The notes: generated from the letters alone by a model not told the origin. A DNA stretch of 31,845 nt from Alphaproteobacteria bacterium (GCA_016869895.1 VGDC01000001.1:1-31845); one strand, 5' to 3'. Positions 10,987 to 31,719 are shown, counted from the first letter of the stretch. Translations and numbers: made by a program.

Positions 10987-11505
10987 ATGGCCAATCCGCA
11001 CCGCGGCGAGGTGACACTCACCTTCGCCGGAAGAACTTGCACCCTCCGCCCCACCTTCCATATCCTCGCTACCTTAGAGCAACGCCTCGGCCTCACCCTT
11101 TCGCAGCTGCTTTGCAGGGTCGAAGATAAGGGATTATTGGCGAGCGAAATGCTCATCATCCTTTCCCTCGCCACGCGGCATGATGGCTCTGCGCCATTCG
11201 ATTCCGATGCAGCGATGCGTCTTCCCGCCGAAGACGATTCCCTCAAAAAAGCCATGCCTTTTATCGCGCGTTTTCTCATCGGCGCGATGGGCGGTGAACC
11301 CTCCCTCGATTTTCCTCGCCTGATGCATCTGGCACAGGTGAATCTGGGTATCAATCCCGAAGAATTCTGGAAAATGAGCATTGTTGAATTATCCGCGCTC
11401 CTTGCACCCGTTTCGGCTAGGGTCGATGCTTCAAGAGGCGCAGAAATACCGCAGTCAGAGCTATATGCCCTGATGGCACAATTTCCCGATAATCATGCAG
11501 CATAA
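10987..11505 (+). CDS. GTA-type tail assembly chaperone: RcGTA g10-like N-terminus fused to g10.1/TAC-like C-terminus
   Basis: N-terminus MANPHRGEV...LRPTF..LA.LE resembles g10; C-terminus LDFPRLM...LGINPEEFWKMSIVEL...LMAQFPD resembles g10.1 chaperones. Confidence 0.8.
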   Translation: MANPHRGEVTLTFAGRTCTLRPTFHILATLEQRLGLTLSQLLCRVEDKGLLASEMLIILSLATRHDGSAPFDSDAAMRLPAEDDSLKKAMPFIARFLIGAMGGEPSLDFPRLMHLAQVNLGINPEEFWKMSIVELSALLAPVSARVDASRGAEIPQSELYALMAQFPDNHAA

Positions 11506-15911: not shown

Positions 15912-16841
15912 ATGACTTTGAAGATTCTCGCGGCATCCGCAGGACAAGCCGTTAAAGACCGCTATACACAGACCGTGCACCGCCATCCCCGCGCCACGCG
16001 GCATCCCCGCGCGCTGGCCTTCACCCTGCGTGACCTCTTCATGACGGATTTGTTGATTTACGGTGGCTATGCGGCCTATACCATCATCCTCGCTCTGTTT
16101 CCCTTCATCATCTTTCTCCTCGCGCTGGCAAGTGTGGTCGGCACGCCGCAGCTGGCCAATGAGGTGATCGATTATGGCTTCGAGATTTTCCCCGAAGAGC
16201 TGGTGGGCATCCTCGCTCCCGTCGTGCGGGAAATCATGGCGAATAACGACACAGGCGTGATGACCGTCGCCGTCTTCGGTATCCTCTGGATTGCTTCATC
16301 GGGCGTGGAGGGCATGCGCTTCGGGTTGAACGTGATGTATGAGGCCACCGAATGCCGCCCGTTCTGGAAGCGCCGCTTGCAGAGCCTCGGTTTCGTGGTG
16401 CTTTCGGCGCTTGCGTTCCTGCTGTTGGCGACGCTGCTCATCATCTGGCCGGTGGCGGCGAAATGGCTGGGCGATTCGCTGCCCTTCCTCCATTCCTCCG
16501 CGCTGAACGTGTTGCGCTATCTGCTCGCCTTCGGGCTGCTCACATGGGGGCTGTCGATTCTGTATCGTTATCTCCCCTTCGGTCGCCGCCATATGAAAGA
16601 GGTCTGGCAGGGCGCGATAGCCGCCGCCATATTGTGGCTCATCATCGTCAGTCTCTTCGCGCTGTATCTCGTGAATTTCGAGGAATATACCCTGCGTTAC
16701 GGCAGCTTCGCGGGCGGCATCCTCACGCTGGTTTTCCTGCAGTTCACGGCTTCTGCCGTGCTCTTCGGCGGGCGGTACAATTTCCTCCTGAAGAAGATAC
16801 GCGAGGGCGACGCGGCGCGTAAGCCACTAAAATCGCTTTGA
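15912..16841 (+). CDS. YihY/virulence factor BrkB family membrane protein (start uncertain)
   Basis: AAYTIILALFPFIIFLL, LWIASSG...LN.MY, RPFWKRR, LYRYLP, Y...YGSFAG. Confidence 0.88.
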   Translation: MTLKILAASAGQAVKDRYTQTVHRHPRATRHPRALAFTLRDLFMTDLLIYGGYAAYTIILALFPFIIFLLALASVVGTPQLANEVIDYGFEIFPEELVGILAPVVREIMANNDTGVMTVAVFGILWIASSGVEGMRFGLNVMYEATECRPFWKRRLQSLGFVVLSALAFLLLATLLIIWPVAAKWLGDSLPFLHSSALNVLRYLLAFGLLTWGLSILYRYLPFGRRHMKEVWQGAIAAAILWLIIVSLFALYLVNFEEYTLRYGSFAGGILTLVFLQFTASAVLFGGRYNFLLKKIREGDAARKPLKSL

Positions 16842-16872
16842 TACGGGCAGGATTTAGCGTACAAATCCCTCC

Positions 16873-18501
16873 ATGGAACATCTGGATACGATACTGCTGC
16901 TGATGGCGCTGCTGGTGGGGCTATACTCCGTGGCGGATCGCGTCGGCGTGTCCTATCCCATCCTGCTGGTCATCGCGGGTCTGGGCATTAGCCTCATCCC
17001 TGAATTGCCGAATATCGAGCTTTCCTCCGAAGTCGCGCTGCTGCTGTTCCTGCCGCCCCTGCTGTTCGATGCGGCGCGCAACACCTCATGGCATGACTTC
17101 AAGCGCAACCGTGATTCCATCGGTCGCTTAGCGATTGGTCTGGTGCTGTTCACCACGGCGGGTGTGGCGGTCGCGGCGTATTACGTCATCCCCGGGTTCA
17201 CATGGCCTCTGGCCTTCGTGCTGGGGGCGATCGTCTCTCCGCCGGATGTGGTGGCGGCGACCAGTGCGCTCAAAGGCCTGCATCTGCCCAAGCGCTTAGT
17301 GGCGATTCTGGAAGGGGAGAGTCTGGTGAACGATGCCTCCGCGCTGATAGCGTATCGCTTCGCCGTAGCGGCGGTGGTCACGGGCAGTTTCGCCTTTTGG
17401 GACGCGGCGTTGGAGTTCGTGCTGGTGGCGGTGGCGGGTGTCGCCATGGGCGTGTCGCTGGCCTATGTCTATACCCAACTCCAAAAGAAATTCCTGAACA
17501 ATCCTACTGTCGAGACGGTGACGACGGTGCTGCTGCCCTTCGTGGCCTATCTTTTCGCGGAATACCTGCATGTGTCGGGGGTCTTGTCGGTCGTTGCGGC
17601 GGGGCTGTATGTCTCGTGGCGCGCCCATGAGCTATTCTCCTTCCAGACGCGCATGCAGATGAACAATTTCTGGGAGACGATGATTTTCCTGCTCAACGGC
17701 TTCGTGTTCATCCTCATCGGCTTGCAGCTGCCCGACATCATGGACGACCTCGGCAACCGCCCCGTGCTGGAGATGGTGGGTTACGGCCTGCTCATCAGCG
17801 CGGTGGTCATCGTCATCCGCATCCTCTGGGTCTTCCCCACCGTCCACATCGCTAACTGGCTCAGCCGTAATCGCGGGGGTATCTCCGGCGGTGCGGCGGT
17901 CACGAACAACCGCCACCTCTTCCTCCTCAGCTGGGCGGGCATGCGCGGCGTGGTCTCGCTGGCGGCGGCGCTGGCTTTGCCCGTCACACTTGCCAACGGG
18001 GTGGATTTCCCCCAGCGCAATGTCATCCTCTTCATCACCTTCGTGGTCATTCTGGTGACGCTGGTGTTCCAAGGTCTCACCATCCCGTTCCTCGTGCGCT
18101 GGTTAGGGATAGAAGAGCCTGAGGAGAAGACCACCACCGAGGAACGCCGCCTGCGCCTTGCTATGGCGAACAGCACCCTTGCGCTCATTGATGAATCTCT
18201 CGCCCATCACACGCCTAAAGCCGTGCTGGACGAAGTGCGTGGCCGTCTGCAACGTCAGGTGAGTTACTTCAACGGCGTGTTGCAGACCAAGGCCAACTGC
18301 AAGACGCTGGAAGCGCAGCGCGAGCAGTTCCGCCATTACCTTCAATCCGAACGCGCGGTGATAGACCACCAGCGCGCCTTCCTTGTGCAGATGCATAAGA
18401 AGGGCGTGTTCAGCGCGGAAGTGCTGCGGAAAATCGAGCAGGATCTCGACACCCGCAGCATGGATTTGCAGAGCAAGATTAAAGCCTTCGCCAGCGAATA
18501 G
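16873..18501 (+). CDS. Na+/H+ antiporter, CPA1 family
   Basis: LFLPPLLF, LGAIVSPPD, ILEGESLVNDAS, SGVLSVVAAG, AGMRGVVSLAAAL. Confidence 0.94.
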   Translation: MEHLDTILLLMALLVGLYSVADRVGVSYPILLVIAGLGISLIPELPNIELSSEVALLLFLPPLLFDAARNTSWHDFKRNRDSIGRLAIGLVLFTTAGVAVAAYYVIPGFTWPLAFVLGAIVSPPDVVAATSALKGLHLPKRLVAILEGESLVNDASALIAYRFAVAAVVTGSFAFWDAALEFVLVAVAGVAMGVSLAYVYTQLQKKFLNNPTVETVTTVLLPFVAYLFAEYLHVSGVLSVVAAGLYVSWRAHELFSFQTRMQMNNFWETMIFLLNGFVFILIGLQLPDIMDDLGNRPVLEMVGYGLLISAVVIVIRILWVFPTVHIANWLSRNRGGISGGAAVTNNRHLFLLSWAGMRGVVSLAAALALPVTLANGVDFPQRNVILFITFVVILVTLVFQGLTIPFLVRWLGIEEPEEKTTTEERRLRLAMANSTLALIDESLAHHTPKAVLDEVRGRLQRQVSYFNGVLQTKANCKTLEAQREQFRHYLQSERAVIDHQRAFLVQMHKKGVFSAEVLRKIEQDLDTRSMDLQSKIKAFASE

Positions 18502-18555
18502 GCTTCCCCCGAAGCATATGGAAAATTTGCGCGGGCAAACGGCATAGTGGGTGCT

Positions 18556-19614
18556 ATGTTGCACCAGAACCCGACAGAACCCGTCACCTCCCACTACTCC
18601 GAAGCCATCTGCCGTGATGTCGCTTCCGAGGCGGGCTTGCGCTATGTGAAGGACACCATCCCCGGCATCCGCCGCAAGCGCGCGGGCAAGGGGTTCACCT
18701 ATGTCGATGCCAAAGGCGCGAAGGTGACAGACCCTAAGACCCTTGCGCGCATCCGCTCTCTGGTGTTGCCTCCGGCGTATGACCGCGTGTGGATTTGCCC
18801 TTACCCGAACGGTCATCTGCAAGCCACGGGGTTCGATGCCAAAGGCCGCAAGCAATACCGCTACCATCCCGATTGGTCTGCCGCCCGCGATGGCAGCAAG
18901 TTCGACCGTCTGGTGGAGTTCGGCGCCGTGCTCCCCGCACTCCGCGCCCATGTCGAGGCGCAACTGCGCAAGCAGGAGCTCACCCGCGAGCGCGTCCTCG
19001 CGGGGCTGATTTACATCATGGACAAATGCTACATCCGTGTCGGCAACCCCACCTATTCCGAGCAGCACAACACCTTCGGGTTGACGACCCTTCGCCGCCG
19101 CCATGTGCAGGTGCAGGGCGACACCGTGGCCTTCACTTTCAATGGCAAGAACGGCACGCCGTGGGACATCTCCCTCAAAGACCGCCGCTTGGTGCGGTTG
19201 CTGAAGCAATGTTCTGAGATTCCGGGCTATCAGGTCTTCAAATACCGTGACGAGAACGGCGCGAAGCAGACCGTCAGCTCACAGGATTTGAACGAATACC
19301 TCCGCGAAGTCACCGGCGGTGCTTTCACCGCGAAGGACTTCCGCACATGGGCGGCCTGTTCCGAAGCCTTCAGCCGCTTCTCCGCCATGCCCGTGCCCCA
19401 GACCGTGAAGGAGCGCAAAGCCATCTCCCGCGCCATCGTGCGCGAGGTGGCCAACACCTTGGGGCACACGCAGGCCGTCTGCAAGAAGGCCTATCTCCAC
19501 CCCCAGCTCGTCACTTCATGGGAAGACGGCGCGCTCAGCGCATGGTGCGCCCAGCGCAAAGGAAAACAGGGGGAGGAGCTCTTCCTGCTCTGGTGGAAAG
19601 CCCATATACTTTAG
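18556..19614 (+). CDS. DNA topoisomerase IB (bacterial/poxvirus-like)
   Basis: PPAY..VWIC....GHLQATG.DAKGRKQYRYH, IRVGN, GKNG, TAKDFRTW, LGHT...KKAY; alternative GTG start at 18547. Confidence 0.94.
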   Translation: MLHQNPTEPVTSHYSEAICRDVASEAGLRYVKDTIPGIRRKRAGKGFTYVDAKGAKVTDPKTLARIRSLVLPPAYDRVWICPYPNGHLQATGFDAKGRKQYRYHPDWSAARDGSKFDRLVEFGAVLPALRAHVEAQLRKQELTRERVLAGLIYIMDKCYIRVGNPTYSEQHNTFGLTTLRRRHVQVQGDTVAFTFNGKNGTPWDISLKDRRLVRLLKQCSEIPGYQVFKYRDENGAKQTVSSQDLNEYLREVTGGAFTAKDFRTWAACSEAFSRFSAMPVPQTVKERKAISRAIVREVANTLGHTQAVCKKAYLHPQLVTSWEDGALSAWCAQRKGKQGEELFLLWWKAHIL

Positions 19615-20500: not shown

Positions 20501-21706
20501 TTGCATCGACGTAAAAATGGAATCACGGTTTTGGAAAAATCCCTTCTCATTCTGCTGCAAAACGCCCAGATGCTCGCGCTCTATAAGCCGCTTCTGGCCT
20601 CGCTTTCCGACCATTCGGTGGTGGTGTATATCCCTGCCAAACGCGGGCAGAAATTGCTCTCCTTGGCGCGTAGCCAGCCCGCGCATGTTTCGTTGTGCGA
20701 TGAGCTGGAGACTATCCTGTTGAATATGCACCGTTTTGGCGTGGTGCTGACCTCGCTTGCCATCCCTTGTCGCGTGCAGATGGAGCAGGCGGGATTATTG
20801 CTGGAAGCCGCGCATAAAGCCGGTTTGAAGGTAGTCGAGGTGCAGCACGGTTTGTTCCAGTGGGGGCATTTGTTCGAGGACAAAAAACCCATCCTTTCCG
20901 ACCCCGCGCGCTGCGGCGGCGAGCGCGGTCTTGGAAAATCGGTAAATATATCCGATGCTTATCTTCCGTGGTTCGGCGAGGGCGGCATCGGTTATCCGCT
21001 GTCGGGCATCGGCGATGTACCGCTGGAGACCCGCAAGGATACGGTGCTCGTCGCCACGAATCTGCACTGGACGATTTACGGCGCGCATGAACGCCGCGCC
21101 TTCTTCGCCGCGGTGGGATACGCCGCGCGCAAACACCCGCAGACAGCCTTCATCTGGAAGGCGCATACGGGCGACCATGAACTGGTGAAGCAATGGCTGC
21201 GGAAAAAGAAATATCGTAATATCAGCCTGATTCCTGCCGACGATGCGCGGAGTTTCGAGGACATCGCTTCCGGCTGTGCGCAGGCCATTTCCATGCCATC
21301 GACGGTGCTGTTGTCTCTGGAAGTCTTGCGCAAACCCACGGCCATTTTCCGCTGTGAAGGCAACGCCGAACTGGTGGGTAAACTGGCGGAAAGTCATGCA
21401 TTCACCGATGGTCGCGCGCTGGATGCCTTCCTGAGCGAATCCCCCGCTCTGGCGGCCAGCGGCCTTCTTGAGCCTTTCGACGCGGGTGTATTCCGCGCCG
21501 CAGTGGCCAAGCATTACACCGAAACGCGCAATCCCTTCGGCAATCTGGCGGTGTGGAATGCCTATCGCCTGAGTCATGACCGCGAGGCGGGTTCACGGGT
21601 GAAAACCCTGCTCATCGGCCTTTACCGGAAGCTATCGCGCTTGCCGCTGCTGCGCGAGCTGCTCCACTGGCGACCCTTGCGGCAATGGCTGCGCGACCGC
21701 CGATAA
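20501..21706 (+). CDS. Putative polysaccharide biosynthesis / GT-B-fold transferase (start uncertain; TTG at 20501 or 20531)
   Basis: VVEVQHG, WKAH and STVLLSLEVLRKP resemble motifs of capsule-biosynthesis and glycerophosphotransferase-like proteins; directly upstream of wzm. Confidence 0.55.
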   Translation: MHRRKNGITVLEKSLLILLQNAQMLALYKPLLASLSDHSVVVYIPAKRGQKLLSLARSQPAHVSLCDELETILLNMHRFGVVLTSLAIPCRVQMEQAGLLLEAAHKAGLKVVEVQHGLFQWGHLFEDKKPILSDPARCGGERGLGKSVNISDAYLPWFGEGGIGYPLSGIGDVPLETRKDTVLVATNLHWTIYGAHERRAFFAAVGYAARKHPQTAFIWKAHTGDHELVKQWLRKKKYRNISLIPADDARSFEDIASGCAQAISMPSTVLLSLEVLRKPTAIFRCEGNAELVGKLAESHAFTDGRALDAFLSESPALAASGLLEPFDAGVFRAAVAKHYTETRNPFGNLAVWNAYRLSHDREAGSRVKTLLIGLYRKLSRLPLLRELLHWRPLRQWLRDRR

Positions 21707-21727: not shown

Positions 21728-21756
21728 TTGCCCCCGCAACCCTCGGGGGGTATAAG
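21728..21756 (+). promoter_or_regulatory. Sigma70-type promoter for wzm-wzt, overlapped by an inverted repeat
   Basis: TTGCCC-N17-TATAAG ending 29 nt before the wzm ATG; IR AGGGTTGC-CCCC-GCAACCCT at 21724-21743. Confidence 0.55.
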
Positions 21757-21784
21757 GGATTTTCCTGAAAACCACGGACATCCC

Positions 21785-22588
21785 ATGCCCGATAAGCTGC
21801 TTTTCATCACCCGATTCCTCGATACGCGCCGCTCGCACCTGTTGCAGCTGATGCTGTTCAAGGCCTATGCCGACCTGAAGACCGAATCGGCGCGCAGCAC
21901 GGCAGGCGTGCTGTGGTGGGTGCTGGAACCGGTGCTGCATATGGCGGTGTATTATCTCGTCTTCGCGGTGCTGATGCAGACGAAGACCGATCAGTTCGTG
22001 GTGTTCCTGCTCATCGGGCTGGTGGTCTGGCGGTGGTTCTTCTCGACGGTGACGCAGGGCGCGGCGTCCATCATAGCGGGCAAGAACCTGATGCAGCATG
22101 TGCATATCACGCCGTCTTTCTTCCCCTCGGTGTCGCTGATAAGCCAAGGATTCAAGTTCGTCATCACCTTCCTTATCCTGCTGGTGTTCATCTGGCTATA
22201 CGGCCTTGCGCCGAGCGTTGCTTACACTGCTCTTCCGGTCGTGCTGGCGGTGCAGTTTCTGTTCATCGTGGGCACGACCTATCTGTGCTCAGCCATCGTG
22301 CCTTTTCTGCCCGACCTGAAAATTCTGTTGGGGCATTTCCTGCGCGCGGTGATGTTCGTCAGCGGTATCTTCTTCGACGGCGACCATATCCCCGAACACC
22401 TGAAGAGCTGGTTCTTCGCCAACCCGATGGCGGCGCTCATTGAAGCGTACCGCGATATCCTCATCGACGGTGTGCTGCCCGACTGGGGGCATCTGAGCTA
22501 TGTCGCGTTGTTCGGTTTATTGCTGTTATTGGTGGGCAAGCGGCTGCTGGCAAAAGCGGAATTCCTGTACCCCAGAGTGGTGATGTGA
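21785..22588 (+). CDS. wzm: Polysaccharide ABC transporter permease (Wzm/KpsM-like)
   Basis: G.LWWVLEP, FLLIGLVVWRWF, F.SGIFF, NPMA.LIEAYR.IL; about 6 TM segments. Confidence 0.92.
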   Translation: MPDKLLFITRFLDTRRSHLLQLMLFKAYADLKTESARSTAGVLWWVLEPVLHMAVYYLVFAVLMQTKTDQFVVFLLIGLVVWRWFFSTVTQGAASIIAGKNLMQHVHITPSFFPSVSLISQGFKFVITFLILLVFIWLYGLAPSVAYTALPVVLAVQFLFIVGTTYLCSAIVPFLPDLKILLGHFLRAVMFVSGIFFDGDHIPEHLKSWFFANPMAALIEAYRDILIDGVLPDWGHLSYVALFGLLLLLVGKRLLAKAEFLYPRVVM

Positions 22589-22595
22589 GGGCAAA

Positions 22596-23336
22596 ATGAA
22601 CGCAAAAACCACCCAAAAAACCGAAAAACCCATCCTCTCCCTCAAGGGCGTGGGCGTGAACTATGGCAAATCCTTCTCCTTCCGCCGCAAGCGGCTTGAC
22701 CGCTGGGTGCTGCAGGACATCAGCTTCGACCTGATGCCCGGGGAATCGCTTGGCGTGTTGGGGCGCAACGGCATCGGCAAAAGCACGCTGCTGAAGACCA
22801 TGGCAGGTGTCATCGCACCGGATGCGGGCGAGGTGAAGCTGAAGAAAGGATGCAGCGCATCGCTGCTTGCCTTGGGCACGGGCTTCATGCCGGAATTGAC
22901 GGGGCGAGAGAACGTGTTCCTCGGTGGGATGCTCATCGGCATGAAAGCAGGGGAAATCCGCAAGCGTTTCGATGAGATTGTGGCCTTTGCGGAGCTGGAA
23001 GAGGCCATCGATATGCCCTATTACACCTATTCCAGCGGCATGAAATCGCGCCTCGGATTCGCGCTGAGCATCCAGCGCAATCCCGATATCCTGCTGCTCG
23101 ACGAAGTGCTGGGCGTGGGCGATGTGGCTTTCCGCAAGAAATCCGCCGATGCGTTGAAAGAGCGCATCCTCGGCGAACAGACGGTGGTGCTGGTGTCGCA
23201 CAACGGGCAGACCATCCGCGAACTGTGCAACCGCGCCATCTGGATAGAACAGGGTGTCATCCGCATGGCGGGCGACCCCGACCAAGTGGTGACGGAATAT
23301 GAGGCGCAGATGCTGGCACTGGAACAAAGCAAATAA
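22596..23336 (+). CDS. wzt: Polysaccharide ABC transporter ATPase (Wzt/KpsT-like, no C-terminal carbohydrate-binding domain)
   Basis: GRNGIGKST, ELTGRENV, YSSGMKSRLGF, LLLDEVLGVGD.AF, VSH. Confidence 0.94.
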   Translation: MNAKTTQKTEKPILSLKGVGVNYGKSFSFRRKRLDRWVLQDISFDLMPGESLGVLGRNGIGKSTLLKTMAGVIAPDAGEVKLKKGCSASLLALGTGFMPELTGRENVFLGGMLIGMKAGEIRKRFDEIVAFAELEEAIDMPYYTYSSGMKSRLGFALSIQRNPDILLLDEVLGVGDVAFRKKSADALKERILGEQTVVLVSHNGQTIRELCNRAIWIEQGVIRMAGDPDQVVTEYEAQMLALEQSK

Positions 23337-23375: not shown

Positions 23376-23735
23376 ATGAGGCAGTATAAGGTCGGAGAAG
23401 AGGACGCGCGCCCTTGGGGTGGGTGGAAGGTGCTGGATGTGCATCCGGATTATGTGGTGAAGCATATCCATGTGCTGCCGGGAAAACGCCTTTCCCTGCA
23501 GCGTCACCGCTATCGCGAGGAGGTCTGGGCCATCACCCGCGGTATCGCCCAAGTGACGCTGGACGAAGAGACGCTGACCCTGAAAGTCGGAGAGAGCATC
23601 CGCATTCCGCTGCGCGCGTGGCACCGCATCCACAACATCGGCGAGGAGATGCTGGAGTTCGTGGAGACGCAGACGGGAAGCCGATTCGATGAAGATGACA
23701 TCGAACGGAAAGAGGACGATTTCGGGCGCGCCTGA
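23376..23735 (+). CDS. Stand-alone cupin, type II phosphomannose isomerase C-terminal-like
   Basis: RPWG, SLQRH..REE.W, HRI.N.G, QTG..FDEDDIER..DDFGR. Confidence 0.85.
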   Translation: MRQYKVGEEDARPWGGWKVLDVHPDYVVKHIHVLPGKRLSLQRHRYREEVWAITRGIAQVTLDEETLTLKVGESIRIPLRAWHRIHNIGEEMLEFVETQTGSRFDEDDIERKEDDFGRA

Positions 23736-23832: not shown

Positions 23833-24717
23833 GTGGTACAGGTCATCGCGGAAGTCGGCTGCAATCATAAAGGCGATATGGACATTGCCAAGGAACTCAT
23901 CAACGTCGCCGCCCATGTGTGCAAGGCTGATGTGGTGAAATTCCAGAAACGTCACAACAAGGAATTGCTGTCGCCGGAGCAGTATAACGCGCCGCATCCG
24001 AACCCTGCTAATTCCTACGGCGATACTTACGGCGCGCACCGCGAATTCCTCGAATTCTCCACCGAGCAGCACGCCGAATTGAAAGCCCATTGCGAAGCGA
24101 ACGGCATCATCTACTCCACCTCCGTGTGGGATTTGACCTCCGCCAAGGAAATCGCGTCGCTCGACCCCGTGCTCATCAAAATCCCTTCCGCCACGAACCT
24201 CCACTGGCCGCTTCAGGGCTGGCTCTGCGAGAACTATAAGGGCGAAATCCACGTCTCCACCGGCATGACCACCAAGGACGAAATCGAAGAGATCGTGAAG
24301 TTCTACGAGAAGCATGGCCGCGCGAAGGATTCGCTGGTGCTTTATGCCTGCACGTCCGGCTATCCGGTCGCTTTCGACGACCTCTGCCTGAACGAGGTCA
24401 GCCGCATCAAGGAACTGTACGGCGACCGCGTGAAAGCCATCGCTTTCTCCGGCCACCACCTCGGCATCGCTGCTGACATCGCTGCTATGACGCTGGGCGC
24501 AAGCTGGGTGGAGCGTCACTTCACGCTCGACCGCACCTGGAAAGGCACCGACCACGCCGCCAGCCTCGAGCCGGATGGACTCCGCCGTCTCTGCCGCGAC
24601 CTGCGCAATGTGGAGAAAGCGCTCACCTTCAAATCCCGCGATATTCTGGAAGTGGAAGCCGTGCAGCGCCGCAAGCTGAAATGGGGCGAATACACCGCAG
24701 AAACCAAAGCGGGCTGA
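23833..24717 (+). CDS. neuB: NeuB-family nonulosonate synthase lacking the C-terminal antifreeze-like domain
   Basis: IAEVGCNHKGD, DVVKFQKR, KIPSA, STGMTT, CTSGYP, SGHHLG, VERHFTLDR..KGTDH.ASLEP; 294 aa. Confidence 0.92.
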   Translation: MVQVIAEVGCNHKGDMDIAKELINVAAHVCKADVVKFQKRHNKELLSPEQYNAPHPNPANSYGDTYGAHREFLEFSTEQHAELKAHCEANGIIYSTSVWDLTSAKEIASLDPVLIKIPSATNLHWPLQGWLCENYKGEIHVSTGMTTKDEIEEIVKFYEKHGRAKDSLVLYACTSGYPVAFDDLCLNEVSRIKELYGDRVKAIAFSGHHLGIAADIAAMTLGASWVERHFTLDRTWKGTDHAASLEPDGLRRLCRDLRNVEKALTFKSRDILEVEAVQRRKLKWGEYTAETKAG

Positions 24718-24720
24718 TTC

Positions 24721-25860
24721 ATGCGCGTCGTCGCCGTCATCCCCGCGCGCGGAGGCTCGAAAGGCGTTCCGAACAAGAACATCCGCCCTGTCGGCGGCGT
24801 GCCGCTGGTCGGCCGCAGCATCATCGCCGCGCTGGAAAGCGAGACGGTGGGCGGCGTTTACGTCTCCACGGATGATGTCGGCATCGCGGCGGTGTCCACC
24901 GCCTTCGGCGCAAGCGTCATCCAGCGTCCGGCGGAAATATCGGGGGATACGGCCTCTTCCGAAGCCGCACTGCTCCACGCACTTGACCACATGCCCGAAC
25001 AGCCGGACGTGCTGGTGTTCCTGCAATGCACCTCGCCTTTCACCACGCCTGCGCAGATAGACGCCGTGGTGCGCAAGCTCATTGCGACGGATGCCGACTG
25101 CTGCTTCGCGGCGGCGGAGGATCATGGCTTCCTGTGGCAGGAGAACGGCGAGGATGCGGTGGGCGTGAACCACGACCACACCCAGCCGCGCAAACGCCGG
25201 CAGGAACTCACCCCGACCTACCGCGAGACGGGCAGCATCTATGCCCTGCGCGTGACGGCTTTCCGCGAGAAACAGCAACGCTTCTGCGGCAAGACGGTGC
25301 TGGCGGTGGTGGATCAGGCGCCGTTGGAAATCGATACGCCCGATGAACTGCGCTGGTGCGATGCCATCGCCTGGACGCGGAAAGAGAACGTGCCGCTGAA
25401 ACCGCGATTGGAGGCCATCAAAGCCCTCGTCTTCGATTTCGACGGGGTGATGACCGACGACCATGTGACCGTGAGCGAAACGGGCGAGGAGAGCGTGCGC
25501 TGCTCGCGCTCGGACGGGATGGGCATCACGCTGCTGAAGGAGAAGGGGCTGAAGCTGTTCATCCTCTCCAAAGAGAAGAACCCCGTGGTGCTGGCGCGCG
25601 CGAAGAAGCTGGGCATTCCCGCGCAGAATTCCACCGATAGCAAACTGCCCGCGCTGCAGGCATGGGCAGCGGAGAACGGCGTGAGCCTTTCCGAAATCGC
25701 CTATATGGGCAATGATGTGAACGATGTGGAAGTGATGGGGCAGGTAGGGCTCGCCATCGCCCCCGCCGATGCCCACCCCTCGGCCAAAGCCGTTGCCCAT
25801 TACATCACCGCGAAGGATGGCGGCAAGGGCGCCGTGCGGGAAGTATGTGATTGGTGGTGA
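24721..25860 (+). CDS. neuA: CMP-nonulosonate synthetase fused to a KdsC/YrbI-type HAD phosphatase
   Basis: IPARGGSKGVPNKN, VSTDD, LQCTSPF, ETGSIY, EIDTPD; then FDFDGVMTD, SDGMGI, YMGNDVND, GG.GAVRE. Confidence 0.92.
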   Translation: MRVVAVIPARGGSKGVPNKNIRPVGGVPLVGRSIIAALESETVGGVYVSTDDVGIAAVSTAFGASVIQRPAEISGDTASSEAALLHALDHMPEQPDVLVFLQCTSPFTTPAQIDAVVRKLIATDADCCFAAAEDHGFLWQENGEDAVGVNHDHTQPRKRRQELTPTYRETGSIYALRVTAFREKQQRFCGKTVLAVVDQAPLEIDTPDELRWCDAIAWTRKENVPLKPRLEAIKALVFDFDGVMTDDHVTVSETGEESVRCSRSDGMGITLLKEKGLKLFILSKEKNPVVLARAKKLGIPAQNSTDSKLPALQAWAAENGVSLSEIAYMGNDVNDVEVMGQVGLAIAPADAHPSAKAVAHYITAKDGGKGAVREVCDWW

Positions 25861-25927: not shown

Positions 25928-26773
25928 ATGCACTCAATCCATCCATCGGATTATCAAAAAGCCTTCGTGCGTTATCTGCGCAAAGGAATTCCCCTTGATG
26001 TCGCATTAAAGGCGCCATCAAGCGAACACACTACAACTCACTACATCTGGCGCACGTCTGGTGATGATAAGGTTAGGAATGCCCACGCGGTCAACAACGG
26101 CAAACTATTTCGTTGGGATGTGCGTCCATCCACCGGACATCCGGGCGAGGATTATAATTGTCGTTGCAAAGCGGAGCCGTTCATTCCAGGTGAGAGTGAG
26201 TATGCATATCAAATACTATTGCAGCCAGAGCGTGATGTGGAAAATAAATGGACAGCAGCCAAATTCATTAGACATTACTACTTTGGTGGCGGAAGAACAC
26301 TTGAGTTACAAGAAACGGGGCATCTCCTAGCGATTATCAATTACTATTTATACTATATAAAACGTCAGGGAGCGGACAGTAGAAGCCGGGTGAATTCTGA
26401 AATAATTACTGCTGCTCGTAAGCGACAGAGTGGGGGTTTCACCCATAATTTTTATAATTCATACACCGAGTTTGGTGATTATTTTTGGCCGTTTGGTGGT
26501 GGAAAGGTAAGCGGCTTATTCACAGGAGACGTTCATCATAAAAACGGCATGCTAAGTATCCAAGGAACTATTAATTACAAGTATGCAGATATTTTCACAG
26601 ATCCGGTTAATTTGAGAGAAGATTTTTACCATGGCACATCAGACCCAGCCGAAGCATCTATATTGGCTCTAATGGTAACTGATGCGCTTGGTGTGCACTT
26701 TGATGTAGTCGGGCGGTGGGAGACGCAATTCTCAGCGGAAGTAAGATTAGATGCTGAAAATAGCATGTACTAA
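25928..26773 (+). CDS. MuF (phage head morphogenesis) domain protein with a C-terminal extension; candidate polymorphic toxin
   Basis: YIWRTSGDDKVR..H..NNGK.F.W......HPGEDYNCRC.AEP MuF signature; GAGGT RBS; sampled lines have 23/60 and 24/60 G+C. Confidence 0.82.
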   Translation: MHSIHPSDYQKAFVRYLRKGIPLDVALKAPSSEHTTTHYIWRTSGDDKVRNAHAVNNGKLFRWDVRPSTGHPGEDYNCRCKAEPFIPGESEYAYQILLQPERDVENKWTAAKFIRHYYFGGGRTLELQETGHLLAIINYYLYYIKRQGADSRSRVNSEIITAARKRQSGGFTHNFYNSYTEFGDYFWPFGGGKVSGLFTGDVHHKNGMLSIQGTINYKYADIFTDPVNLREDFYHGTSDPAEASILALMVTDALGVHFDVVGRWETQFSAEVRLDAENSMY

Positions 26774-27243
26774 GAAGCTAGTTCTAAAATCAGTGTGCTG
26801 ACCATCATGCAAATGGGGTAAATGACGAATATGAGTGTGCCGATAGCTATCAGAAAGTTCGCGAACCATCCCTTCTTGAAGTGCCCACCCATGGTTTTGA
26901 TGGTGCGTCTGTGCCGCATTTGCCAAGCAAATTCACACAATCCCGCATATCCCGCTGCGAAGACCCAGCCAATCAGCGGGTAGAAGAATAAGCCTAAGCC
27001 TTTCGGCGGCTTTCCGCATTCGGGATGTTGCTGGAGAGAGCCGTCAGCGAATTGGCTTTGGCAAATTTCATAATCGTGCCAACCTAGATGATAGTGTGAG
27101 TAAATCATCGCATTCAGCGCCGCATACCCTAAAAGAATCGCGCCGATGAGCCGCCACGTGCGGAACTTCGCACTATCTTCTGGCTTTGCGGCGAAGACCA
27201 GCACGGGAATCAGCATCACGAATAACCAGAAAAACGGGTTCAT
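26770..27243 (-). CDS. 157-aa four-TM membrane protein; candidate immunity protein
   Basis: Start MNPFFW, coupled by ATGA overlap to the upstream GT29 gene; four hydrophobic segments; Cys pair in the loop between TM2 and TM3; stop overlaps the MuF gene stop. Confidence 0.72.
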   Translation of the reverse strand: MNPFFWLFVMLIPVLVFAAKPEDSAKFRTWRLIGAILLGYAALNAMIYSHYHLGWHDYEICQSQFADGSLQQHPECGKPPKGLGLFFYPLIGWVFAAGYAGLCEFAWQMRHRRTIKTMGGHFKKGWFANFLIAIGTLIFVIYPICMMVSTLILELAS

Positions 27244-28301
27244 TCCCCTGCTTCCCCCATCAGCTTCCTGAAGTAAGCCGCTTCTTTGTGCCAATCGTGG
27301 GGGCTGCTGATGGTGAATTTCTCGAAATAGTGTGATTTCGCGCCGGCTTGCAGATGGTCGGTGAAGCTGAAACCGTAGCAATCGGGTTTCGCATCCGGCC
27401 CGATGATGTCACACACAGCACGGATGGCGAGCAGCCCTGTGCTGGGCGGTGAGCCAAGCTCTTCAAACAAGGCGTCATAGGTCTTCTGGAAGGTCAATGT
27501 GCCCGTGCCTTTGCGCTGCTGCGCTTCGATGGCCGACCAATCGGCGGGATGGGCGAAAAGGTGGGAGACGCCATAGCCAATGAAGGCGAATCTTTCATCT
27601 GGTCGCTCCTGTGTGCGGCGGTTGCGCCCACGGAACCAGACGGTGGCTTTCGTGCCGTAATCCGCTGCGAAACGCGAATCGGCGGCGAAATTGTTGAAGC
27701 GGATGACGACGGCGTGGCGGTCTATCTCCGCGCCTCTGGCCTTGCCGACTTCGCAGGGGGAATTGCCGACCAGCGCGATATTGAAGCGGTTAGCGAGGAG
27801 GTATTCGCGGAAGCGGTCGTGATCCAGCGCGAAGCGGATGCGCTGGCGGTTGGTGGGGTCGAAACAGGCATATCTGCCTTCGATGTCTTTCGCGCCGGGG
27901 AAGGTGATGGCGGCGGCATCGCGCAGGCCGAGGTCATAGAGCGCGGCTTTCAGGCGAAGGCGTTTGGCGGGCGCGCGCACGTTGCCCATGCGGGGTAGAT
28001 AGGATGCGGCGGTGGGGGCATCCAGTCGGCCAGAATCGAAGAGGTCGAGCAGGTAATCCGCCAGATAATCCCCGTTATGGGGGGCGAGTTCAGCCGCCTT
28101 CAGGAAGAGCGGCGCGGCGGCGAGGGAATGCCCGCCCGCATAACGATGCGCCTTGGCGGATGTGTGGAAATCCGCCGCAGAACGAGGCGGGAAACGGCGA
28201 TAACCCGCCCGCACAAGGCCAAGAACCACAGAAAGCGCACGGTTGCACTCTAACCGGCTCTGGATGCGCGCTATCTGATATAATCCCTGAAGCAAAATCA
28301 T
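27240..28301 (-). CDS. GT29-family (eukaryote-type) sialyltransferase-like protein (start 28301 or 28316)
   Basis: Sialylmotif L-like [28 protein letters not shown]...DYGTKAT; S-like PSTGLLAI...CYGFSF; III/VS-like HYFE...HDWHKE. Confidence 0.85.
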
Positions 28302-28426
28302 GGCTCTGGATAACACGGATTGTCAGCTTTTTCCACGGAAAATGCTTTGGATTCCTTGACGTTGCAGGAATTATGCTTATGATGCTGCCATTGCCTGCGG
28401 TGGGCGGTTATTTCAAGGTTTTTTGT

Positions 28427-29761
28427 ATGCGTATCGGTATTTTCGGGACGGGTTATGTCGGCCTCGTGCAGGCGGCTGTGCTGGCGGAAACGGGCTATAG
28501 CGTGCTGTGCGTCGATGTGGATGCGTCGAAAGTGGCGCGACTGGAAGCAGGCGAAATCCCCATCTATGAACCCGGTCTAGAAGGGCTGGTGAAGCATAAC
28601 CGTGCGGAAGGCCGCTTGAAATTCACCACGCAGGCCGCCGATGCGGTGAAGCATGCGGGCATCCAATACATCGCCGTGGGCACGCCGCCCGATGAGGATG
28701 GCTCCGCCGATTTGAAATATGTGTTGGCTGTGGCGGAGAGCATCGCCATCCATATGGAATCCCACCAGATCGTCATCAACAAATCCACTGTACCCGTCGG
28801 AACAGGGGACAAGGTGCGCGCGAAAATCGCCGAGACGCTGAAAGAACGTGGCCGCGAAGACCTGACCTTCGATGTGGTGTCCAACCCCGAATTCCTCAAG
28901 GAAGGCTCGGCGGTGGGCGATTGCATGAAGCCCGACCGGATCGTCATCGGCACGAACAGCCGCGAGACGGAAGCGGTGATGCGCGAGCTTTATGCCCCCT
29001 TCAACCGCAACCATGAGAAAATCATCGTGATGGATGTGCGCAGTGCGGAAATGACCAAATACGCCGCGAACTGCATGCTGGCGACCCGCATCACCTTCAT
29101 GAACGAGATGGCCAACCTCGCCGAGAAGCTGGGGGCGGATATCGAACAGGTGCGCCATGGCATCGGGTCTGACCCGCGTATCGGCTATCACTTCATCTAC
29201 CCCGGCATCGGCTATGGCGGCTCGTGTTTCCCCAAGGACGTGCGCGCGCTCATCCAGACGGCGAAGGCGGTGGGCTATGAAACCACGCTGCTGAACGCGG
29301 TGGAGAACCGCAATAACACGCAGAAAACTGTACTCTTCAACAAGCTGAACGCCTATTTCGGTGGCGACCTCAAAGGCAAGGTCATCGCACTTTGGGGGCT
29401 GGCGTTCAAGCCGAATACCGATGATATGCGCGAAGCACCGTCGCGCGTGTTGATGGAAGCGCTGTGGGAAGCGGGCGCAAGCGTGCGCGCTTTTGACCCC
29501 GAAGCCATGCAGGAAGCCGAGCGGGTGTATGGCAAAAGCGACCGATTGACGCTGGTGGAGAACAAGGAAGCCGCGCTGGAGGGCGCGGATGCGCTGGCCA
29601 TCGTGACCGAGTGGAAAGCCTTCCACGCGCCGGATTTTGCGCGCATCAAAAACACGCTGCGTGAGCCTGCCATCTTTGACGGACGCAATATCTATGACCC
29701 CGCCGTCGTCGCGCGCCACGGCATCGACTATTATGCTATCGGGCGCGGAAAGACCATTTAA
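28427..29761 (+). CDS. ugd: UDP-glucose 6-dehydrogenase (444 aa)
   Basis: True start [12 protein letters not shown]; [57 protein letters not shown]. Confidence 0.96.
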
Positions 29762-29781: not shown

Positions 29782-31719
29782 ATGAAAAAAGAACAAGAAA
29801 AATACTGTTTCACCACCGTTGTTTCTGACAATTTCGTCCACGGATTCATCGTGATGCTGTGCTCGCTGCGGGAGAAGAACCCGTGGATGAATGCGCCGTT
29901 CTACGTGTTCCACCATGAGCGCGAATGCCCGCTTTCCGAAGCCAGCATGACGGAGATGCGGAAGTATTACGACAACATCATCTTCCACCGCGTGGACATC
30001 GAGAAGTTCGAGCGCATCCTGCATGCGCGCGACAATGTCATCAAGACACCGGAGCGCCTCGCTTCCGCCTTTTTCATCATGGAAGCCTTCACTTTCAGCG
30101 ATTACGACCGCGTCATCTGCATCGACAGTGACATGCTGGTGCTGGGGGATATTTCCGAGCTAGTGCGCGTGAAAGCCGACCTCGCGGTGGTGCATGAATA
30201 CGATAGCCGCACCTATCAGCAGAAGAAGCATTTCAACAGCGGCATCGTGGTCATCGGCAAGAAATATCTGCATGCGGATAGTTTGAAGGACATCAGCGAT
30301 TCGCTGGACCGTTTCGACCTGAAAGCTAAGCACGGCAAGGCTGATCAGGCGGTGCTGAACTGCTATTTCGCCGATAAGGAGCTCACCTTCCTACCCCATG
30401 CCTTCAACTGCCTGAAACGGCTTTATGGCGATTCCTATGCCAAGCCCTACAACGATTTGCACACAGGCAGCCGGAAAATCGCTGCGAAACTGCAGAAGGA
30501 TGGCATCCGCATCCTGCATTATGTGGGCGAGAAGCCATGGAACCTGAAGCGTAAGCCGGTCGAGATGCGCTATTACTGCGCAGAGGAGCTGTGGCACGAT
30601 GCCTTCCGCAAATATGCTTCGCCGGAGGCGCAGCACCGCTACCTGACCGATTTCCGCCGTCATGCGGATGAGCAGGTGGCGCAGTTGACCAAACGCATCG
30701 AGAAATACCGTGCCTTCTGGCCGTATCGTCTGCAGAAGACGCTGGAGAACCTGAGCGACAGCAAGTCCATCGGTGAACTTGGCGAAAAGCTGGTGAAATT
30801 GGCTGTGCATGTGGCGAAACGCCTGCGCGTGAAGGTCATCCACGCATGGATGCGCTATCGCCAGCTGGACGAGAAATCGCTGGAGAAGCGTCAACGCGAA
30901 CAGCGGATGGATGTGCAGCGCAGGGCGTTCCTCGATTCCGGTGAATACGACCGTCTGCGCGCCCGATTTGAGAACAAATACGAAGGCCAGCGGTGCTTCA
31001 TCATCGGCAATGGCCCGTCGCTGAACCAGCAGGACTTGTCGGTGTTGAGGGATGAGCAGGTCTTCTGCACCAACTGGTTCATGAACCATCCGCAATACCA
31101 CGACATCAATCCGCAGTTCTATGCCCTCTGCTCCCACCAGATTTTCGGTGGCTGGTCGCACGAGCATATCCAGCTGGAGAAGGGCATGGAGACCGCGCTG
31201 GCCACACATACGCGTGATTCTGTCAAGTTCTTCTCCCACGTGTTCAAGTCGCATCTGGAGAGCCAGACGGCACTGGCCGACCACGAGCTGTATTATCTGA
31301 TGTTCGACAAGCCGAAGAACTTCATCCATAAAATCGACGACATGAATCTCGACCTCAGCCGCAACATGGACGATGGGCACACGGGGGTCATCACCTTCTG
31401 CATCCCGCTGGCCATCTTCATGGGGTTCAAGGAAATCTACCTGCTCGGCTGCGATTGTGATTATGGCATCGACGACGGCAAGACGGATGTGCAGTATTTC
31501 TACGAGAAAGAGAAACACACCACCCAGCTCACCGATATGGACAGCCTGCGCCGGACATGGTCATACCCCGACGGAGCGGCATTCAAGGCTTATGCAGTGG
31601 CAAAGCGCAAGGCCGACGAAGCGGGTGTGCGCATCGTGAATCTCACGGCAGGCGGCAGGCTGGAGGTCTTTCCGCGGGAATCCTTAGAGGACGTGGTGAA
31701 ACAGCCGGAAGCCGCTTAG
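29782..31719 (+). CDS. Bifunctional glycosyltransferase: GT8 domain plus DUF115/Maf-like (CstII-related) domain
   Basis: N-half IDSDML, FNSGIVVI, DQAVLN, LP.AFN, HYVGEKPW; C-half RCFIIGNGPSL, FCTN, LAIFMGFKEIYLLGCD. Confidence 0.85.
   Translation: MKKEQEKYCFTTVVSDNFVHGFIVMLCSLREKNPWMNAPFYVFHHERECPLSEASMTEMRKYYDNIIFHRVDIEKFERILHARDNVIKTPERLASAFFIMEAFTFSDYDRVICIDSDMLVLGDISELVRVKADLAVVHEYDSRTYQQKKHFNSGIVVIGKKYLHADSLKDISDSLDRFDLKAKHGKADQAVLNCYFADKELTFLPHAFNCLKRLYGDSYAKPYNDLHTGSRKIAAKLQKDGIRILHYVGEKPWNLKRKPVEMRYYCAEELWHDAFRKYASPEAQHRYLTDFRRHADEQVAQLTKRIEKYRAFWPYRLQKTLENLSDSKSIGELGEKLVKLAVHVAKRLRVKVIHAWMRYRQLDEKSLEKRQREQRMDVQRRAFLDSGEYDRLRARFENKYEGQRCFIIGNGPSLNQQDLSVLRDEQVFCTNWFMNHPQYHDINPQFYALCSHQIFGGWSHEHIQLEKGMETALATHTRDSVKFFSHVFKSHLESQTALADHELYYLMFDKPKNFIHKIDDMNLDLSRNMDDGHTGVITFCIPLAIFMGFKEIYLLGCDCDYGIDDGKTDVQYFYEKEKHTTQLTDMDSLRRTWSYPDGAAFKAYAVAKRKADEAGVRIVNLTAGGRLEVFPRESLEDVVKQPEAA

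Follow-up and report, generated by a model that had tools for sequence, protein, structure and literature searches.

A GT29-family glycosyltransferase gene beside putative nonulosonate donor genes in an uncultured alphaproteobacterium

The GT29 gene and its product

Here, we describe a gene of glycosyltransferase family 29 (GT29) and its surroundings in a contig of an uncultured alphaproteobacterium whose DNA came from a lake-water metagenome (GCA_016869895.1, VGDC01000001.1:1-31845). The whole stretch that was analyzed, 31,845 nucleotides in length, is referred to below as the window. The genome containing it amounts to 2.09 Mb in 377 contigs and is 89.75% complete, and its acetolactate synthase was closest (70-72%) to metagenome-assembled genomes labelled Rickettsiales bacterium. 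A genome-wide Pfam search placed PF00777 (Glyco_transf_29) at one site only, which was the GT29 gene of the window.

This gene lies on the minus strand at 27240-28301 and encodes 353 amino acids plus a stop codon, exactly the interval given in an earlier note on this DNA, which had assigned it to GT29 from the sequence alone and named the PF00777 hidden Markov model as the check. When the 353-residue protein was scanned with Pfam, PF00777 was matched with an E-value of 3.7e-10 and 40.1 bits (curated cut-off 23), which confirmed the identification of the open reading frame (ORF) as a GT29 member far beyond chance. The start at the ATG at 28301 was backed by three orthologs and by the public gene call; the frame is also open up to an alternative upstream GTG at 28316 (ORF 27240-28316). 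The GC content of the gene was native to its surroundings, and the ORF was intact in the three diverged orthologs.

Four sialylmotifs could be located in the protein. Motif L (27636-27779, minus strand, residues 175-222) was aligned to motif L of ST3Gal-I, and motif S (27363-27449, minus strand, residues 285-313, PSTG ... YGF) to GT29 structures. Motif III (27321-27335, minus strand, residues 323-327) reads SHYFE and was aligned to HHYWE of ST3Gal-I, and motif VS (27282-27299, minus strand, H335-x4-E340), which holds the putative catalytic base, to the H..E pair of ST8SiaIII. The motifs stand in the canonical order, as the earlier note had stated, and their positions differ from the ranges it gave by a few bases at most. 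Eleven residues were invariant in 62 family members (G179, N180, G190, I193, D194, R201, G216, G289, G310, H335 and E340), and Y325 of motif III was nearly so.

Two further points of that note, the lack of a membrane anchor and the absence from their usual positions of the cysteines that form the disulfide between motifs L and S in Golgi enzymes, also held. No transmembrane (TM) segment could be identified in the protein (the maximum 19-residue Kyte-Doolittle mean was 1.1), nor does it have the anchor and stem of a type II membrane topology; its N-terminus is an amphipathic helical domain. On the basis of a profile alignment with pig ST3Gal-I, the two disulfide positions are occupied by Ile175 in motif L and Asp303 in motif S. 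The motif-S cysteine of ST3Gal-I lies six residues before the tyrosine of YGF, and Asp303 matches it. Cysteines are present at positions 183, 297 and 308.

A 237-nucleotide contig identical to part of the GT29 gene was found in a wastewater metatranscriptome library, which indicates presence only, since carry-over of DNA is possible. A scan for promoters and terminators around the gene gave counts no higher than those of shuffled sequences. In addition, one RNA-labelled run (X2) contained a roughly 92%-identical contig that extended over the larger part of GT29 (from 27511 upward) and over the neighboring ugd gene and was probably derived from a related strain.

Predicted fold and domains

The AlphaFold (AF2) model, built on an alignment of family members, had a pLDDT of 90.5 and a pTM of 0.88, and showed two domains. 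The C-terminal one (27243-27824, minus strand, residues 160-353) is a compact GT29 catalytic domain of about 190 residues, delimited by structure matches and by the 150 best HMMER matches, every one of which was confined to this part of the protein. We carried out an exhaustive structural search of 48,161 representative chains, independent of Foldseek, in which the top four matches were ST6Gal1 (Z 14.6), ST3Gal1 (14.6), ST6GalNAc2 (13.6) and ST8SiaIII (12.2). The MptE-like kinase 8SD5 (Z 9.2) and the GT42 enzyme Cst-I (2P56; Z 8.4, rank 36) followed at a distance. With Foldseek, the 15 best matches in the PDB were all GT29 proteins (probability 1.00), as were all 30 matches among the Swiss-Prot models of AFDB. 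A family profile of 48 members matched only GT29 chains in the PDB (E-values of 4e-14 to 6e-9), with no GT42 chain among them. Thus, the modelled catalytic domain has the GT-A variant 2 fold of solved GT29 structures.

The N-terminal domain (27882-28301, minus strand, residues 1-140) is all-helical in the model (DSSP helices spanning H2-133), in agreement with the helical, possibly tetratricopeptide repeat (TPR)-like N-terminus suggested by the earlier note. Residues 1-138 resembled TPR arrays with Z-scores of 9-11, values that may arise by chance among helical repeats, and no Pfam TPR model was matched in the protein. The term TPR-like is therefore meant here as a description of the predicted shape only.

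Gene neighborhood

The GT29 gene belongs to a glycan locus that begins with an ORF of 401 amino acids (20501-21706, plus strand) without any Pfam or NCBIfam match. It is followed on the plus strand by the genes of an ABC exporter, that is, the ABC-2 permease Wzm (21728-22588, PF01061) and the 246-residue ATPase Wzt (22596-23336, PF00005, with Wzt/TagH-like NCBIfam matches). Three genes of a putative donor pathway come next on the same strand. The first encodes a stand-alone cupin of the mannose-6-phosphate isomerase (PMI) type (23376-23735, PF01050, E 1.6e-29), which would provide the first step. The second encodes a short NeuB-family synthase of 294 amino acids (23833-24717, PF03102, E 2.1e-66) that is devoid of the C-terminal part of full-length NeuB and covers TIGR03569 only at positions 2-271 of 329. 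The third encodes a fusion of a NeuA-type cytidylyltransferase with a KdsC-like HAD phosphatase (24721-25860), identified by Pfam and NCBIfam and by comparison of each domain separately. Its cytidylyltransferase domain matched CMP-sialate synthetases with E-values of 1e-23 to 1e-29 (CMP, cytidine monophosphate), against 1e-6 for KdsB; the C-terminal domain of mouse CMAS ranked second among the PDB matches of the HAD domain, which also matched BT1713 (E 4e-20). Thus, the putative donor-pathway genes that the earlier note had placed next door are indeed there (NeuB-family synthase, KdsC-like HAD phosphatase and NeuA-type cytidylyltransferase, in addition to the cupin), and no NeuC was matched in the genome.

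Between this set and the GT29 gene lies an insertion of low GC content (25928-27243; 0.45, versus about 0.59 around it), which consists of a MuF-like gene on the plus strand (PF04233) and a gene for a protein with four TM segments (4-TM) on the minus strand, whose ATG overlaps the stop codon of the GT29 gene (ATGA). On the other side, a UDP-glucose 6-dehydrogenase gene (ugd; 28427-29761, plus strand) is divergent from the GT29 gene and is followed by a gene for a fusion of a GT8 domain with an MptE/Maf-like domain (29782-31719, plus strand; PF01501, E 4e-18, and PF01973, E 6.2e-10). We considered a recent paralogy between the GT29 domain and this Maf-like domain, which is encoded only 1.5 kb away, and rejected it, as no significant similarity could be observed (E 0.64).

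Conservation of the locus in related contigs

Three loci with orthologs of the GT29 protein were compared with the window. In L001 (protein P0004, 55% identity), nothing separates the GT29 gene from the NeuA-HAD, NeuB and cupin genes, after which come a DUF6716 gene and Wzt/Wzm; on its opposite flank GT29 is bordered by a divergent ugd, and the GT8-Maf-like fusion is absent. In L003 (P0003, 58%), ugd is likewise divergent, and the NeuA-HAD gene comes after one inserted gene of 519 amino acids, with the contig ending inside NeuA-HAD. In L004 (P0008, 30%), NeuB, a triple fusion of NeuA, HAD and PMI cupin, and GT29 follow each other on a single strand. NeuA-HAD was thus found within one or two genes of GT29 in every one of these contigs, and the short NeuB and the PMI cupin were visible in two of the three (L001 and L004). 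The divergent ugd/GT29 pair was kept in L001 and L003. On the basis of these results, the association of GT29 with donor genes persists down to 30% identity, once with a gene fusion (PMI cupin with NeuA-HAD), and GT29 is the transferase that stays beside the NeuA-HAD gene in all four loci.

Other parts of the locus were more variable. The MuF/4-TM insertion is absent from L001, and the 519-residue gene at the same junction in L003 is unrelated to it; therefore, the convergent junction seems to accept insertions. The identity of GT29 between orthologous loci (55-58%) was lower than that of NeuB (91%), NeuA-HAD (78%) and ugd (81%), which fits an acceptor-specific, serotype-like enzyme. It was also observed that in L001 a fusion of Capsule_synth (KpsC/S-like) and GT2 domains, with a weak GT99 match in its N-domain (16645-18954), replaces the GT8-Maf-like fusion of the window; thus, the polymerizing enzymes differ while GT29 and the donor genes stay. 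The 401-residue ORF at the head of the locus was examined as a possible homolog of the DUF6716 putative glycosyltransferase, which has a comparable place in L001, and was rejected for lack of significant similarity. In another locus (L106), a different GT29 gene is directly followed by Wzm and Wzt.

GT29 proteins in bacteria

An exhaustive HMMER search over 1.84 billion cluster representatives revealed 868 relatives with E-values of up to 1e-3, of which 359 reached 1e-10 or better; in almost every case the alignment was confined to residues 160-350. PF00777 was matched in all of the 62 relatives scanned; Pfam TPR repeats, N-terminal to the GT29 domain, were present in 10 of them, a pyruvyl-transferase domain in 6 and Capsule_synth in 5. 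In 154 members, the catalytic domain nearly always formed the very C-terminus and was preceded by an N-terminal extension with a median length of 260 amino acids. The N-terminal domain described here was common to only three relatives, all on metagenome contigs. In a quick tree built within the bacterial-type family only, the protein fell into a small, long-branched subclade (SH-aLRT 99). No close ortholog could be identified in species-representative genomes with a single-protein search, and among 40 relatives there was one domain-level match only. The subclade is thus known so far only from metagenome contigs. In NCBI, relatives already bear the name 'glycosyltransferase family 29 protein', and the ESM Atlas contains many bacterial and some phage GT29 clusters. 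In the phage (Uroviricota) clusters, GT29 is fused with a methyltransferase or with GT8, a pairing that echoes the GT8-Maf-like fusion near the gene studied here.

The family was found in 6 of 401 genomes sampled from the class. Two of the five other GT29-bearing genomes (G052 and G118), each with several GT29 copies, were devoid of NeuB. Genome G030 carries a minimal GT29 gene beside ManC, GT4 genes and an asparagine-synthase-like gene instead of a NeuB pathway, and the GT29 genes of P0014 and P0100 adjoin GT2 genes. A general rule that bacterial GT29 genes always occur with NeuB was therefore rejected on account of these contexts and of that of P0007. The latter (L101, 850-6507) is a 1106-residue fusion of Capsule_synth and GT29; the genes after it, one HMGL-like (aldolase-type) and one for a CTP_transf_3 cytidylyltransferase, may represent a different ulosonate pathway. 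Two tblastn matches to the GT29 domain fell within the fusion, and the record comes from an assembly with millions of contigs. In G052, five GT29-like matches were located in four ORFs and no NeuB was found although the genome is 93% complete, which suggests that its GT29 proteins use a different donor such as CMP-activated 3-deoxy-manno-octulosonic acid (CMP-Kdo). Three tandem GT29 paralogs of about 380 amino acids each were observed in another genome (G288:C47:78242-81019; L089, L094 and L097).

Proposed function and alternative explanations

We consider it probable that the GT29 protein is a cytoplasmic, inverting transferase of CMP-activated nonulosonates, with CMP-activated 2-keto-3-deoxynononic acid (CMP-KDN) as the probable donor, and that it adds this sugar to a glycan destined for export through Wzm/Wzt. 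Of this proposal, the family assignment, the motifs, the fold, the topology and the conserved synteny were observed, whereas the identity of the donor, the acceptor, the linkage and what the N-terminal domain does are inferred. The predicted use of a sialic or ulosonic acid activated by CMP, with inversion, finds its support only in the adjacent NeuA-type cytidylyltransferase. CMP-KDN is the most likely donor because the NeuA-HAD/NeuB/cupin synteny is conserved, because the gene content of the genome agrees with it (a single NeuB, a single PF00777 gene, a single PF01973 domain, a separate KdsB and no NeuC match), and because a route from mannose-6-phosphate has been published. In Bacteroides thetaiotaomicron and Prymnesium parvum, mannose-6-phosphate and phosphoenolpyruvate are condensed to KDN-9-phosphate, which is then processed by a HAD phosphatase and a CMP-KDN synthetase (PMC6200933).

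The protein would thus be a soluble enzyme of two domains, a helical-repeat N-domain and a compact catalytic domain of the GT-A variant 2 type. By homology, motifs L and S may hold the CMP moiety of a CMP-activated ulosonic acid, His335 of motif VS could serve as the general base, and His324 and Tyr325 of motif III might assist the departure of the phosphate. Transfer would be metal-free and would proceed with inversion to an alpha-ketosidic (alpha-KDN) linkage. On the supply side, the PMI-type cupin would make mannose-6-phosphate, the short NeuB would condense it with phosphoenolpyruvate to KDN-9-phosphate, the HAD domain would remove the phosphate, and the NeuA domain would then form CMP-KDN. 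The acceptor is most likely a lipid-linked, probably glucuronate-containing glycan assembled on the cytoplasmic face, to which, or to partner proteins, the N-terminal domain may dock; Wzm/Wzt would export the decorated product. Judged from its length of 246 residues, Wzt is too short to include a C-terminal carbohydrate-binding domain, and KDN is therefore less likely to mark the end of the glycan for export than to form part of the repeat unit or of a branch.

It should be noted that several results weigh against this proposal. The HAD domain scored below both curated cut-offs (110 versus 208 bits for KdsC, 88 versus 180 for KDN-9-phosphate phosphatase), so that these scores speak for neither C8 nor C9 specificity. 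The GT8-Maf-like fusion is a second candidate nonulosonate transferase within the locus, and the window contains no initiating transferase or ligase. The NeuB-less genomes and the neighborhood of G030 show GT29 genes apart from such a pathway. No match to Epimerase_2/NeuC (PF02350) was found in the genome, which, at 89.75% completeness, might still carry such a gene. Moreover, GT29 membership does not fix the donor: plant members have a reported connection with Kdo transfer, and Arabidopsis GALT29A carries a galactosyltransferase annotation. Finally, no activity data for any bacterial GT29 protein were found in the literature searched.

Among the alternatives, the same class of enzyme might use CMP-activated N-acetylneuraminic acid (CMP-Neu5Ac) or another nonulosonate, of the legionaminic or pseudaminic acid type, instead of CMP-KDN. 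The assignment to the NeuB and NeuA families does not tell these donors apart; the best NCBIfam matches were the NeuB_NnaB and PseF models, both under their cut-offs, and in L004 DegT aminotransferases and dehydratases are encoded upstream of NeuB. We nevertheless regard this as unlikely: besides the missing NeuC match in the genome, the window itself encodes neither aminotransferases nor dehydratases, only the phosphorylated route would require a phosphatase domain, and three loci have the PMI cupin as a neighbor or a fusion partner.

A distinctly less probable explanation is that the donor is unrelated to the neighboring pathway (CMP-Kdo, or even a UDP-sugar) and that the Maf-like domain is the real KDN transferase. 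The multiple GT29 copies of the NeuB-less genomes G052 and G118, the precedents from plants and the presence of the GT8-Maf-like fusion within the locus would agree with such a division of labor, as would the KdsB that the genome encodes. However, in L001, L003 and L004 the transferase that has remained together with the NeuB/NeuA-HAD genes is GT29 and not the Maf-like gene.

It seems very doubtful that the protein is instead a protein glycosyltransferase, for example for flagellin, whose TPR-like domain would recognize the acceptor as in FlmG or OGT. The helical repeat in the N-terminal domain and a flagellin-family match in the genome are in line with this idea, and FlmG binds flagellin through its TPR domain. 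However, the catalytic domain of FlmG is GT-B and not GT29, so the architecture found here is not of the FlmG type; the flagellin-family gene lies on a contig other than that of the window; the conserved neighbors are ugd and Wzm/Wzt, with nothing flagellar among them; and the resemblance to TPR arrays is within the chance range mentioned above. That the protein has lost its activity, or serves the assembly complex as a structural subunit only, as its faster divergence relative to its neighbors might suggest, is hardly credible given that every family-invariant residue, including H335 and E340, has been kept and that the ORF is intact in all orthologs.

Comparison with known systems and significance

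Bacterial GT29 proteins were described by Petit et al. (2018; Sci Rep 8:2946, PMC5811610), who reported 23 sequences, 19 of them alphaproteobacterial, that lacked a TM segment and the L/S cysteines, and who proposed a bacterial origin of eukaryotic GT29 proteins; gene neighborhoods were not examined in that study, and no function could be predicted in it. Our protein resembles those sequences in its PF00777 domain, motifs L, S, III and VS, the lack of a TM segment and the lack of the L/S disulfide cysteines. In contrast with them, it has its own helical N-domain of about 160 amino acids, belongs to a long-branched subclade and shows a conserved link to a KDN-type pathway.

The fold, the motifs and the putative histidine of motif VS are shared with mammalian ST3Gal-I (2WNB/2WNF), ST6Gal-I (4JS1), ST6GalNAc-II (6APJ/6APL) and ST8Sia-III (5BO6-9), and thus the same mechanism may be expected, that is, inverting, metal-independent and with a CMP-activated donor. 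In contrast to these Golgi enzymes, to which identity is only 18-25%, the bacterial protein has a compact domain of about 190 residues and would be cytoplasmic instead of luminal; it has neither the type II anchor, nor the stem, nor the L/S disulfide, and it carries the N-terminal helical-repeat domain. Campylobacter Cst-I and Cst-II (GT42) and the Maf/MptE-like proteins (PF01973), which are bacterial cytoplasmic CMP-nonulosonate transferases, share the GT-A variant 2 architecture, whereas the structural match to them was clearly weaker than that to GT29. Plant GT29 proteins (rice STLP1-3, putative Kdo or 3-deoxy-lyxo-heptulosaric acid (Dha) transferases for rhamnogalacturonan II, and Arabidopsis GALT29A) were among the top Swiss-Prot structural matches and indicate that enzymes of the family can use donors other than sialic acid. 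Unlike the gene product described here, they are Golgi membrane proteins, and here the adjoining activating enzyme is of the NeuA type, not the KdsB type.

With regard to the donor, the neighboring genes supply the same three enzyme types as the KDN pathway of B. thetaiotaomicron and P. parvum, with a HAD domain from the KdsC-like family that also includes BT1713, the KDN-9-phosphate phosphatase of this pathway. The difference is that the phosphatase is fused to the cytidylyltransferase, as in the architecture of vertebrate CMAS, and that a PMI cupin is added. In the literature searched, no KDN transferase has been assigned in these two organisms.

The novelty of the gene itself is modest, as bacterial GT29 proteins without TM segments or L/S cysteines have been known since 2018 and NCBI labels for them exist; taken as a sequence observation alone, the gene repeats published knowledge. 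The earlier note had stressed its relevance to the origin of eukaryotic sialylation. That interest was overstated, since the idea had been published (Petit et al., 2018). What is new is the conserved link of GT29 to a KDN-type donor pathway and a locus with counterparts of the eukaryotic sialylation toolkit. As predicted from its genes, this Rickettsiales-related alphaproteobacterium combines in one locus a bacterial equivalent of each part of the eukaryotic sialylation module: a phosphorylated-route synthase of the NeuB/NANS type, a CMAS-like NeuA-HAD fusion and a GT29 transferase. One might speculate that a gene set of this kind, and not GT29 alone as suggested in 2018, was handed over as a whole to the ancestor of eukaryotes, although we regard such a scenario as improbable.

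The subclade also provides a concrete, testable and well-supported hypothesis on the donor, namely CMP-KDN supplied by three adjacent genes, and the soluble protein, free of disulfide and anchor, should express well in Escherichia coli. No report of a biochemically characterized bacterial GT29 protein was found in the literature searched. If transferase activity were confirmed, it would be the first for the bacterial branch of GT29; the protein might then serve as a biocatalyst for KDN or sialyl transfer, and the discussion of how sialylation came to eukaryotes would gain a functional reference point.

Other observations

Three RNA-labelled runs (X2, X3 and X14), all from a single coded organism, contained contigs identical to the region of the 4-TM gene (window 26800-27260). 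Elsewhere in the window, a bacterial type IB topoisomerase gene is located at 18547-19614, and an isolated gene for a gene transfer agent (GTA)-like tail chaperone, in which PF11836 and PF09550 are joined in one ORF, at 10987-11505.

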